The position numbers were made by a program, and so were the translations under genes. From assembly GCF_024502345.1 (NCBI RefSeq), contig NZ_JALDNN010000001.1: a stretch of DNA of 64,000 nt; one strand, written 5' to 3'. Numbering within the stretch: the stretch's first letter is position 1; each line of letters starts with the position of its first letter. This DNA is from Escherichia coli. Lineage in GTDB: Bacteria; Pseudomonadota; Gammaproteobacteria; Enterobacterales; Enterobacteriaceae. Under the pieces are notes generated by a model. That model ran no database searches. It had not been told where the DNA came from and was given only the letters and a program-made list of their open reading frames with translations. Below are positions 6,930 through 55,761 of this stretch, one piece after another.

Positions 6930-8114
6930 TTAAACGGGCTGCCCCTGATGCGACATCCGCGTCGCCAGCGGCAGCCAGCACAGCACGATCAACAATCCCA
7001 TTAAGGTCATCAATAACCCCAGGCTACCCTGACCGGTTTGCGGCAACATCGCAGAGAGCGACGCCAGCACGCCGGAACCAATGTTTTGCAGACCGCCGAC
7101 CAGCGCGCCAGCCGTGCCCGCCAGGAAGGGGAACGGCTCCATCGCGCCGCTGGTCGCCAGCGGAAACAGCATCCCGGCACCGAAAAAGAACAGCGCGGCG
7201 GGAACGAGCAGCGTCCAGACATTCATCACGCCAAACCAGTCGGGGATCCACATCAGCAAGCCAGCCAGCAGGCAGCAGATAACCGACTGCCACATTAACG
7301 TGGAGAAGCGTTTATTGGGACGTCCGGCAAACCATGCGCCAAAAAACGCTGCCGGAATCGGCAGAATAAACAAAATACTGACCGTCATACTGCTCAGCCC
7401 TAACACCGCGCCCATCAGCACGCCGGAGCAGGCTTCAAAGGCGGCAATCCCGGCCAGACCGCCAATCAGCATCAGCAAATAACAGTTAAAACCGCTGTTA
7501 CCGAAAAGCGTTTTATAACTGGTAAGCAGGCGCGTGCGCGGTGCATCGACAGGACGCGTTTCCGGCATCCAGCGGGCCATACTGAAGGTCACACCAGCAC
7601 AAAGAACCAACAAAAAGAGATAACAGGCGCGCCAGTTCCACATCGTATCCAGCAGACCGCCGATTAGCGGTGCGAGCAACGGACTGACGAGAATCCCCAT
7701 GTTTAACAGGCTGTTAGCATGGCGCAACTGTGTCCGTTCATATAAATCTCGCGGCAAAGTACGCGCCATTACGCCGCCAACGCCGGTGCCCATCCCCTGC
7801 ATCGCGCTGGCGGCAATCAACACCGTCAAACTGGAGGTCGTGACCGCGACCAGCGTTGCCAGCATAAAAATGGACATTCCGACGAGGATCACCGGTCGGC
7901 GACCCACACGGTCGGAAATCGGGCCATAAAACAGCTGTGAGACACCGTAAGTCAGCAGATAAGCGCCCATTACGCTCTGCACCGCCCCTTCACGGACGTT
8001 GAGATCGCGCGCCATATCGGCAATAGCTGGAATATAAATGGTTTGCGCCATCTGACCGACGGCCACGAGTAATACCAACATCAATAACAAATTGACGTTT
8101 CTATGCCTTTTCAT
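6930..8114 (-). CDS. emrD: MFS multidrug efflux transporter
   Basis: 394-aa 12-TM MFS protein; start trimmed to MKRH. Confidence 0.9.
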   Translation of the reverse strand: MKRHRNVNLLLMLVLLVAVGQMAQTIYIPAIADMARDLNVREGAVQSVMGAYLLTYGVSQLFYGPISDRVGRRPVILVGMSIFMLATLVAVTTSSLTVLIAASAMQGMGTGVGGVMARTLPRDLYERTQLRHANSLLNMGILVSPLLAPLIGGLLDTMWNWRACYLFLLVLCAGVTFSMARWMPETRPVDAPRTRLLTSYKTLFGNSGFNCYLLMLIGGLAGIAAFEACSGVLMGAVLGLSSMTVSILFILPIPAAFFGAWFAGRPNKRFSTLMWQSVICCLLAGLLMWIPDWFGVMNVWTLLVPAALFFFGAGMLFPLATSGAMEPFPFLAGTAGALVGGLQNIGSGVLASLSAMLPQTGQGSLGLLMTLMGLLIVLCWLPLATRMSHQGQPV

Positions 8115-8304
8115 TATCACGGATGCTTTTATAAAAATAATTAGAATAAGTCACTACGCATTCCCATAAATGCGGGAGAGGAATCTATCACATTGATGAA
8201 TGCTAGCCAGATATGTGCCGGGAATGGCGAAAAGCAAAACGGCAGAATATGTAAACAAAAGCGGCAATAAATGTTGCCGGAAGGGATTACGTGCGAACTG
8301 TAAC

Positions 8305-8417
8305 CCTCTCCCTGAAAGGGCGAGGGGGAAACCACCGTTCCCTTTCAGAAAATGAGCTAAACATTGCACGGGACGGTCCCCTCGCCCCTTTGGGGAGAGG
8401 GCTAGGGTGAGGGGCAC
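8305..8417. repeat. REP/BIME-like palindromic repeat cluster
   Basis: CCCTCTCCC..GGGCGAGGGGG at 8305-8329 is the reverse complement of CCCCTCGCCC..GGGAGAGGG at 8378-8400. The spurious ORFs 8154..8468 and 8287..8475 are artefacts of this repeat. Confidence 0.6.
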
Positions 8418-8532
8418 AGGCAGCGCAGGTGCAAACATTCTGCTGGTAGAAGAAGCCCCCAACTCCAACCCGCACGCTAAATATAAAAGGGGAGCGGTTA
8501 CCCGCTCCCCTTTGGTGCGACTTGAATCTGAA

Positions 8533-8622
8533 TTACTTCAGGTATTTCAGAACAGCATCAAGCAGTTGCAGTGCTGCAACAATGAGTTTGAGGATAAGAA
8601 TGGCGATATCCACCAGGCTCAT
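8533..8622 (-). CDS. tisB: SOS-induced type I toxin TisB (29 aa)
   Basis: The reverse complement translates to MSLVDIAILILKLIVAALQLLDAVLKYLK followed by a stop. It is below the 60-aa cut-off of the ORF track. Confidence 0.9.
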   Translation of the reverse strand: MSLVDIAILILKLIVAALQLLDAVLKYLK

Positions 8623-8874: not shown

Positions 8875-8975
8875 TAATTTTTGGACAAAACGCAAACTGT
8901 GATCGATACTCAACTATGTACTAAATACGTCAAAATTCGTGCCGAAATTGCGCGTTCTGCGCGGAACAGGTATAC

Positions 8976-9057
8976 TTTCAGTGTTGACATAATACAGTGT
9001 GCTTTGCGGTTACCAGCCGCAGGCGGCTGACGAAACCTCGCTCCGGCGGGGTTTTTT
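8976..9057 (+). ncRNA. istR: IstR-1-like antitoxin sRNA (approximate ends)
   Basis: A TATACT -10 at 8962-8967 is followed by a ~75-nt segment ending in a hairpin and U-tract (9036-9057). The segment carries a 21/22-nt match (GTTGACATAAYACAGTGTGCT) to sequence inside the tisAB 5-prime UTR at 8733-8754, so the two transcripts would be complementary. Confidence 0.55.
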
Positions 9058-9186
9058 GTTACCTGCAATTCAGTGCAAAACGTGATCAACCCCTCAATTT
9101 TCCCTTGCTGAAAAATTTTCCATTGTCTCCCCTGTAAAGCTGTGCTTGTATAAATATTGTTAAACACAAAACCAACAAGGTCCCCA

Positions 9187-9285: not shown

Positions 9286-9311
9286 GGACTGGAACAACAC
9301 ACGATTCCAAA

Positions 9312-9343
9312 ACCCCGCCGGCGCAAACCGGGCGGGGTTTTTC
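9312..9343 (+). terminator. ilvB attenuator (rho-independent terminator)
   Basis: CCCCGCCGG..CCGGGCGGGG stem followed by a T-tract, between ivbL and ilvB. Confidence 0.8.
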
Positions 9344-9390
9344 GTTTAAGCACCTCCCGGAAAGTCGGCCCAGAAGAAAAGGACTGGAGC

Positions 9391-11079
9391 ATGGCAAGTT
9401 CGGGCACAACATCGACGCGTAAGCGCTTTACCGGCGCAGAATTTATCGTTCATTTCCTGGAACAGCAGGGCATTAAGATTGTGACGGGCATTCCGGGCGG
9501 TTCTATCCTGCCTGTTTACGATGCCTTAAGCCAAAGCACGCAAATCCGCCATATTCTGGCCCGTCATGAACAGGGCGCGGGATTTATCGCTCAGGGGATG
9601 GCGCGCACCGACGGTAAACCGGCGGTCTGTATGGCCTGTAGCGGACCGGGTGCGACTAACCTGGTGACCGCCATTGCCGATGCGCGGCTGGACTCCATCC
9701 CGCTGATTTGCATCACCGGTCAGGTTCCCGCCTCGATGATCGGCACCGACGCCTTCCAGGAAGTGGACACCTACGGCATCTCTATCCCCATCACCAAACA
9801 CAACTATCTGGTCAGACATATCGAAGAACTCCCGCAGGTCATGAGCGATGCCTTCCGCATTGCGCAATCAGGCCGCCCAGGCCCGGTGTGGATAGACATT
9901 CCTAAGGATGTGCAAACGGCAGTTTTTGAGATTGAAACACAGCCCGCTATGGCAGAAAAAGCCGCCGCCCCCGCCTTTAGCGAAGAAAGCATTCGTGACG
10001 CAGCGGCGATGATTAACGCTGCCAAACGCCCGGTGCTTTATCTGGGCGGCGGTGTGATCAATGCGCCCGCACGGGTGCGTGAACTGGCGGAGAAAGCGCA
10101 ACTGCCTACCACCATGACTTTAATGGCGCTGGGCATGTTGCCAAAAGCGCATCCGTTGTCGCTGGGTATGCTGGGGATGCACGGCGTGCGCAGCACCAAC
10201 TATATTTTGCAGGAGGCGGATTTGTTGATAGTGCTCGGTGCGCGTTTTGATGACCGGGCGATTGGCAAAACCGAGCAGTTCTGTCCGAATGCCAAAATTA
10301 TTCATGTCGATATCGATCGCGCAGAGCTGGGTAAAATCAAGCAGCCGCATGTGGCGATTCAGGCTGATGTTGATGACGTGCTGGCGCAATTGATCCCGCA
10401 GGTGGAAGCGCAACCGCGTGCAGAGTGGCACCAGTTGGTAGCGGATTTGCAGCGCGAATTCCCGTGTCCAATCCCGAAAGCGTGCGATCCATTAAGCCAT
10501 TACGGCCTGATCAACGCCGTTGCCGCCTGTGTCGATGACAATGCGATTATCACCACCGATGTGGGTCAGCATCAGATGTGGACCGCGCAAGCTTATCCGC
10601 TCAATCGCCCACGCCAGTGGCTGACCTCCGGTGGGCTGGGCACGATGGGTTTTGGCCTGCCTGCGGCGATTGGCGCGGCGCTGGCGAACCCGGATCGCAA
10701 AGTGTTGTGTTTCTCCGGCGACGGCAGCCTGATGATGAATATTCAGGAGATGGCGACCGCCAGTGAAAATCAGCTGGATGTCAAAATCATTCTGATGAAC
10801 AACGAAGCGCTGGGGCTGGTGCATCAGCAACAGAGTCTGTTCTACGAGCAAGGCGTTTTTGCCGCCACCTATCCGGGCAAAATCAACTTTATGCAGATTG
10901 CCGCCGGATTCGGCCTCGAAACCTGTGATTTGAATAACGAAGCCGATCCGCAGGCTGCATTGCAGGAAATCATCAATCGCCCTGGCCCGGCGCTGATCCA
11001 TGTGCGCATTGATGCCGAAGAAAAAGTTTACCCGATGGTGCCGCCAGGTGCGGCGAATACTGAAATGGTGGGGGAATAA
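9391..11079 (+). CDS. ilvB: acetolactate synthase I, large subunit
   Basis: 562-aa ThDP enzyme with the GDGS..N motif region; conserved position. Confidence 0.95.
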   Translation: MASSGTTSTRKRFTGAEFIVHFLEQQGIKIVTGIPGGSILPVYDALSQSTQIRHILARHEQGAGFIAQGMARTDGKPAVCMACSGPGATNLVTAIADARLDSIPLICITGQVPASMIGTDAFQEVDTYGISIPITKHNYLVRHIEELPQVMSDAFRIAQSGRPGPVWIDIPKDVQTAVFEIETQPAMAEKAAAPAFSEESIRDAAAMINAAKRPVLYLGGGVINAPARVRELAEKAQLPTTMTLMALGMLPKAHPLSLGMLGMHGVRSTNYILQEADLLIVLGARFDDRAIGKTEQFCPNAKIIHVDIDRAELGKIKQPHVAIQADVDDVLAQLIPQVEAQPRAEWHQLVADLQREFPCPIPKACDPLSHYGLINAVAACVDDNAIITTDVGQHQMWTAQAYPLNRPRQWLTSGGLGTMGFGLPAAIGAALANPDRKVLCFSGDGSLMMNIQEMATASENQLDVKIILMNNEALGLVHQQQSLFYEQGVFAATYPGKINFMQIAAGFGLETCDLNNEADPQAALQEIINRPGPALIHVRIDAEEKVYPMVPPGAANTEMVGE

Positions 11080-35862: not shown

Positions 35863-35957
35863 TGGCGGAAGATCACAGGAGTCGAACCTGCCCGGGACCG
35901 CTGGCGGCCCCAACTGGATTTGAAGTCCAGCCGCCTCACCGGAGACGACGATCTTCC
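35863..35957 (-). tRNA. selC: tRNA-Sec (selenocysteine, 95 nt including CCA)
   Basis: The reverse complement reads GGAAGATCGTCGTCTCCGGTGAGGCGGCTGGACTTCAAATCCAGTTGGGGCCGCCAGCGGTCCCGGGCAGGTTCGACTCCTGTGATCTTCCGCCA. Confidence 0.97.
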
Positions 35958-55539: not shown

Positions 55540-55761
55540 TTTCAGTCTCCGTTAGGCGGCGGTGAGATTGTCCGGGTACCACATGGTTGACACTTAGATC
55601 CAACACGTAGTCGTACCTATCCAGTGAAAACCATTCCATCACATCGCCGTATTTAGCCCGTTTCATAACGCCACCTTTTACGCTGCGCCTTATTTTGTGA
55701 TTGAGCCAGGCGGTAAGGCTTCCCGCTTTTCGCCCCGTCGGGCTAGACTCAATCTATTCAG

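Follow-up and report, generated by a model that had tools for sequence, protein, structure and literature searches.

The window, by which we mean the whole 64,000-nucleotide (64-kb) stretch of Escherichia coli DNA that was analysed, includes the ilvB-ivbL-istR-tisB-ysdE-emrD-yidF region in reverse orientation relative to K-12, as judged from the list of open reading frames (ORFs) and the RefSeq annotation of near-identical loci. The same sources place emrD on the minus strand (6930..8114), the tisB toxin gene also on the minus strand (8533..8622) and ilvB on the plus strand from position 9391, while istR is located at 8928-9057 by an Rfam match. A small ORF homologous to ysdE (8196..8270, plus strand) is convergent with tisB. 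The tisB gene has its own intrinsic terminator (8486..8513, minus strand), recovered by inverted-repeat, terminator and fold scans as a 12-bp stem followed by TTATATTT; its hairpin has a predicted DNA folding energy of −15.4 kcal/mol (z = −6.5). The repeat pair under study, which we assign below to the BoxC family, lies in the gap of the convergent ysdE/tisB units, between the ysdE stop codon (8270) and the tisB terminator (8486). It is separate from this terminator, which precedes it in the minus-strand direction. The original prediction had put the element in the 3′ region of emrD, which is incorrect: since emrD is encoded on the minus strand, its start codon and not its 3′ end faces the element, which is located 5′ of the gene at a distance of 174 bp. 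It is 3′ of both tisB (minus) and ysdE (plus).

Several other features of the window were recorded. The product of the ysdE homologue (8196-8270, +), MNASQICAGNGEKQNGRICKQKRQ, differs from that of K-12, MNVSQIYARNGELFSGRICKQKRQ, at 7 of 24 residues, and the differences from K-12 form a dense patch of substitutions, especially at 8215-8240. The gene carries no RefSeq annotation in FDAARGOS_943, the genome closest to the window, and only 9 records are at least 99% identical to the window over positions 8100-8530. A search of the literature on ysdE returned nothing relevant to this locus. A small hairpin (8262..8279) overlaps the ysdE end; read on the minus strand, it precedes CTTTTGTTTA and has a terminator-like score, and it could act as a stop for tisB read-through ahead of the emrD promoter. 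Just downstream of ivbL, weak Rfam hits (P6, STnc310) fall on a G/C-rich hairpin with T-runs at 9300-9361, most likely the terminator of the ilvB leader attenuator and not an sRNA. Rfam further identifies selC (tRNA-Sec, 35867-35957, minus strand) and int-alpA RNA (55687-55753, minus strand). By the K-12 coordinates, selC is about 10 kb farther from emrD than expected, which suggests that there is extra DNA between ilvB and selC, plus a selC-associated island beyond.

The repeat search delimits two arms at 8301-8327 and 8378-8404, each 27 nt long, 85% complementary and separated by 50 nt, bearing out the proposal that the element consists of two inverted copies of about 25 bp. The end originally given to the element, position 8417, also takes in a third G-rich block, GGGTGAGGG, located at 8405-8413 directly after the right arm, although the block itself had gone undescribed. 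When both strands were scanned for the motif CCCTCTCCC-N5-GGGNGAGGGG with up to three mismatches, only these two sites were found in 64 kb, yielding 4 hits compared with 0.06 expected, and none of 100 shuffles reached 4. RNA folding of the region predicts a stable hairpin on both strands with z close to −5: a stretch of 131 nt folds into one long hairpin of −65.9 kcal/mol on the plus strand (z = −5.2) and of −63.4 kcal/mol on the minus strand (z = −5.0), and none of 200 shuffles was equally stable. As DNA, the predicted fold of the same stretch has −30.3 kcal/mol (z = −4.0), and either arm alone is also predicted to form a small hairpin. The G+C content of the element is 59%, compared with 39% in the neighbouring intergenic DNA, and two of its minus-strand frames contain no stop codon, which accounts for the mechanical ORFs of 39-104 aa that overlap the element in the ORF list. 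Pfam gave no match for the five ORFs overlapping or adjoining the element, and no RefSeq CDS is annotated over it in any genome examined. The earlier suggestion that the palindrome explains spurious ORFs is thus plausible for the mechanically called frames, in view of the missing stop codons and Pfam matches, and for nothing beyond those.

Judged by its sequence, the element is a head-to-head pair (minus, then plus) of BoxC repeats, an already known G/C-rich family of dispersed, strictly intergenic repeats that occurs in E. coli and its relatives, and not a REP/BIME. BoxC repeats were reportedly described by Bergler in 1992 and by Bachellier in 1999. They are identical to the PIT elements (Hoyne & Maher 2000, 2002) and to the TMECO triplex motifs (Holder et al. 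2015, PMC4666352), for which the consensus is CCCTCNCCC-N3-6-GGGNGAGGG-N3-GGGNGAGGG (PMC4666352). The complete right unit (8379..8414, plus strand) reads CCCTCGCCC-CTTTG-GGGAGAGGG-CTA-GGGTGAGGG-G and matches this consensus exactly over 8379-8413, with no other exact match in 64 kb (0 expected by chance). The unit resembles type A but has one mismatched triplet; in its second loop it carries CTA, unlike either published form (TTA in type A, CCG in type B). The tail flank of the right unit (8415..8445, plus strand; CACAGGC...TGCAAAC...CTGCT) is in part common to other BoxC copies, as seen from alignments and from the sequences of three copies (L006, L007, L008).

Of the left unit (8304..8326, minus strand) only a Watson-Crick hairpin remains. 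Its minus-strand sequence, CCCTCGCCC-TTTCA-GGGAGAGGG, agrees with only the two-block hairpin part of the BoxC consensus, the third block having been deleted. In a pairwise alignment with a homologous pair found between cpxA and yiiM in some strains, the left unit lacks 12 nt (CCCTCACCCCGG), containing the third block and the second loop, and it therefore has no triplex potential. The hairpin that is left has the same sequence as the one in K-12 TMECO no. 10, type B mm (PMC4666352 Table 1), and its paralogue at cpxA-yiiM (L006) carries a CCG loop. The window pair may combine an A-like right unit, with its CTA loop, and a type B left unit, the loop diagnostic of the type being deleted from the left one. 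The tail flank of the left unit (8291..8300, minus strand; GTGCGAACTG on the plus strand) is common to the cpxA-yiiM pair in the pairwise alignment; this 10-mer abuts the hairpin in the window and is found just outside the third block in the cpxA-yiiM copy. Between the two units lies a 50 nt spacer (8328..8377) built from the head flanks of both, the inner part of which lengthens the long hairpin in the predicted fold. The spacer is homologous to that of the cpxA-yiiM pair, with an alignment score of 17 compared with −9.3 ± 3.7 for shuffled sequences, none of 1000 reaching it.

The median number of places with related sequence in an E. coli genome is 12 and the maximum 24, which confirms the earlier view of a dispersed palindromic intergenic repeat with other copies in the genome; the other BoxC copies examined are intergenic as well. 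Chromosomes account for 60,892 of 60,920 such places. Copies at adk-hemH, cpxA-yiiM, yijF-gldA and fabI-ycjD share a unit of about 50 bp, ACAGT-CCCCTCGCCCC-TTT-GGGGAGAGGG-TTA-GGGTGAGGGG-AACAGGC. Two of these, located independently in K-12 and a K-12 derivative, coincide with published motifs: the fabI-ycjD copy (L009 3206-3240, corresponding to 1,351,205-1,351,239) with TMECO no. 9 and the adk-hemH copy with TMECO no. 6 (PMC4666352). Position and sequence alike thus link these copies to the published family. Between cpxA and yiiM, some strains have a complete head-to-head BoxC pair (L006 1489-1610, strain YZLc1-3), homologous to the window pair with flanks and spacer in common. There is no entry for cpxA-yiiM in the published K-12 table, making it another presence/absence site.

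In MG1655, 23 BoxC/TMECO copies are known, always intergenic (PMC4666352), while other counts give 32-33 copies of a BoxC of about 56 bp (PMC2267715; PMC5172473). In total, 3,610 TMECO copies have been recorded in 262 proteobacterial genomes, Salmonella having none, and they show no association with transposons, phages or plasmids (PMC4666352). K-12 contains five inverted pairs, each composed of one type A unit (loop TTA) and one type B unit (loop CCG) (PMC4666352). Four of the five are arranged tail-to-tail with 16-27 nt between the units, whereas the window pair is head-to-head with 50 nt between them, as is the K-12 pair 17+18. At the present locus K-12 is empty of BoxC, which means that the site is not among the 23 K-12 copies. 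The window pair resembles the published motifs in several ways: the consensus in the right unit, a left-unit hairpin identical to that of a K-12 type B copy, an intergenic position, multiple copies in the genome, an inverted arrangement, partial deletion of one unit with retention of the hairpin, and hypervariable surroundings. It departs from them in the CTA loop and in the missing third block of the left unit. The G-rich strand of type A and type B oligonucleotides forms a stable intrastrand purine-motif triplex in vitro, as seen by CD and NMR, yet the triplex could not be demonstrated in double-stranded DNA nor by DMS footprinting in vivo (PMC4666352). Sequences around TMECOs are more variable than those around controls, and paired TMECOs frequently show partial deletions that keep the hairpin, termed a 'palindrome effect' (PMC4666352); the link between motif and variability is a correlation.

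Other families of repeats were considered as well. The ERIC/IRU core AAGTGACTGGGGTGAGCG gave 0 hits with up to three mismatches. ERIC elements and other MITE-like palindromes of enterobacteria resemble the present one as imperfect palindromes of about 120-170 bp that can form one long hairpin and that show insertion polymorphism between strains, but the palindrome in the window consists of two copies of a shorter repeat and is not a single unit with terminal inverted repeats. With Rfam, no family was found over the element when the whole window was searched at gathering thresholds, and permissive E-values produced only a chance-level hit to mir-1275 (19.7 bits compared with a gathering score of 71). 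The composite does not constitute a dispersed family of 150-170 bp either: its spacer is single-copy per genome, and K-12-type genomes match one BoxC unit only. In strain g83, of the K-12 lineage, at most 41% of the 172-bp segment is matched, which corresponds to one BoxC unit. Six copies of the RSA repeat (150/151 bp) are present in K-12 (PMC5172473); the partial match in the K-12 lineage and the single-copy spacer thus speak indirectly against RSA, and the segment is probably not a member of that family.

Alleles at the site were counted in 5,426 complete E. coli genomes, and the three alleles that we observed cover 5,392 of them. The allele of the window, the BoxC pair, occurs in about 1,497-1,509 genomes. 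From the alignment of alleles, the allele-specific segment is about 172 bp long (8288..8459) and contains the whole BoxC pair with its flanks; it starts 18 nt past the ysdE stop codon, its right end can be placed only to within about 6 bp (8453-8459), and full-length matches to it are found in 1,498-1,509 of the 5,426 genomes. The most frequent allele (2,836 genomes, 52%), which includes K-12, has a single REP in place of the BoxC pair, with about 40 bp of REP sequence where BoxC strains have about 172 bp. In the third allele (1,059 genomes, about 20%) the tisB/istR module is missing, and about 160 bp of unrelated sequence is present between ysdE and ivbL (L010 1672-1835); its breakpoints map to 8281-8287 on the left, no more than about 6 bp from where the BoxC/REP segment starts, and to about 9080-9110 on the right. 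On their left side, the three alleles thus break within about 6 bp of one another (8281-8287), just past the hairpin at the ysdE end (8262..8279). This allelic variability matches the variability and the partial deletions published for TMECO loci (PMC4666352). The long allele itself shows little diversity, its spacer being present in one copy per genome in 1,497 genomes with at least 99% identity throughout, which would fit either a young haplotype or constraint.

Only three positions, clustered in the left arm (8313, 8314, 8317), distinguish the window from the common long allele. FDAARGOS_943 has the window variant, to which about 20 records are at least 99% identical. In the common long allele the left arm is the exact reverse complement of the right arm, and the predicted DNA hairpin has −39.9 kcal/mol compared with −30.3 in the window. 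An imperfect inverted repeat becoming perfect is the classic signature of quasipalindrome template-switch hotspots, as described by Ripley and by Lovett. The difference between the present alleles, three clustered substitutions that perfect the inverted repeat, is of the same kind and shows the pattern expected of hairpin-templated quasipalindrome switching. An identical pattern would arise in the opposite direction by gene conversion from a type B paralogue, and the difference may reflect either. A three-base difference that perfects a palindrome can be taken as a hint of a structural effect at the DNA level.

The idea that the element is a cluster of REP units forming a BIME, to which gyrase or IHF would bind and which a RAYT transposase would mobilise, comes naturally from its architecture, an inverted pair of short, G/C-rich, imperfect intergenic palindromes in a convergent-gene gap, a setting in which REP units also often occur as inverted pairs. 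Nevertheless, the element has no sequence similarity to the REP consensus and is an exact match to a different family: the REP half-site CTTATCMGGCCTAC gave 0 hits with up to two mismatches in the element and in the whole 64-kb window, and the same half-site was found at the allelic position in the K-12 allele (L005 1235-1248), providing a positive control. A degenerate 38-nt REP consensus with up to three mismatches had no hits anywhere and was too strict to be informative. The REP/BIME label is refuted at the level of sequence, and we give this explanation practically no credence. We know of no link of BoxC to RAYT, IHF or gyrase. A role as mRNA stabiliser has been shown for REP, not for BoxC. 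It is a different matter whether the hairpin could serve at the RNA level all the same, as a REP-like protector of the 3′ end of ysdE transcripts, or as a barrier or insulator against read-through from ysdE/tisB and into the emrD promoter. Its position, starting 18 nt past a stop codon between convergent genes, is a typical REP niche; the predicted RNA hairpin is very stable on both strands, such that read-through from ysdE or tisB would carry a hairpin of about −65 kcal/mol; and the alternative allele puts a REP exactly here, as though the two repeats could be functionally interchangeable. Yet no terminator-like hairpin with a T-run is observed on either strand inside 8288-8459, nor any sigma-70 promoter, the terminator-like sites being those outside the segment at 8513-8486 (the tisB terminator) and at 8279-8262. 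The strong terminator of tisB comes ahead of the element, and the absence of the tisB module leaves about 20% of the genomes with neither repeat. In addition, Hoyne & Maher (2002), whose results are recounted in PMC4666352, detected neither promoter nor terminator activity of PIT/BoxC elements, nor any influence on RNA polymerase; the tests in print were made with single units. The initial proposal of an mRNA stabiliser or terminator is accordingly unsupported, and we regard an RNA-level function as distinctly unlikely.

The element might also be a non-autonomous, MITE-like unit, in which the BoxC hairpins would be the terminal inverted repeats of a composite of about 150 bp inserted by a transposase acting in trans. 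This could account for its presence/absence polymorphism, the many BoxC copies per genome and the homologous composite at cpxA-yiiM with flanks and spacer in common. We know of no cognate transposase for BoxC. The junctions, however, show no target-site duplication, and the segment replaces a REP in the alternative allele instead of interrupting an empty site; the spacer occurs only once per genome, merely 28 of the 60,920 BoxC-related places are on plasmids, and TMECOs are not associated with transposons, phages or plasmids (PMC4666352). Taken together this makes a MITE highly improbable. A further, more far-reaching reading stays within the BoxC family. The repeat site after ysdE (about 8281-8459) might be the joint through which genomes acquire, lose or swap the tisB/istR module, with the structure-prone repeats driving the three-allele polymorphism and the three-base change recording hairpin-templated mutation in vivo. 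We put this forward as a speculative possibility that is rather doubtful at present.

The explanation that we consider probable is that the BoxC pair is a structure-prone, functionally neutral dispersed repeat marking an unstable junction beside a toxin-antitoxin module. The pair would have no dedicated RNA-level or regulatory role here and would represent near-neutral repeated DNA in a transcriptionally quiet gap. Since the units are inverted, single strands could adopt either two small hairpins or one long hairpin or cruciform. In principle, the complete unit could also form a purine-motif intrastrand triplex by fold-back of its G-rich strand. Any effect would then be exerted at the DNA level, where structures formed on single strands during replication or repair may favour slippage, template switching and local rearrangement, which would explain why the site is hypervariable. 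We infer both the neutrality at this locus and the DNA-level mechanism, and a structural mechanism is hypothetical even for the BoxC family as a whole.

What has been gained is mainly housekeeping: a supposed REP/BIME is relabelled as BoxC, its gene context is corrected to upstream of emrD, and its designation as a terminator is argued against. Beyond this, the site is a clear case of the variability near these motifs, with three alleles (BoxC pair, REP, no toxin-antitoxin module), and the three-base difference gives a hint, open to testing, of hairpin formation by the pair in vivo. If the more far-reaching reading of the site as a joint for the tisB/istR module were true, the locus would be direct evidence, at the population level, for the extrusion of BoxC pairs as hairpins inside living cells, something that in vivo footprinting has failed to show.
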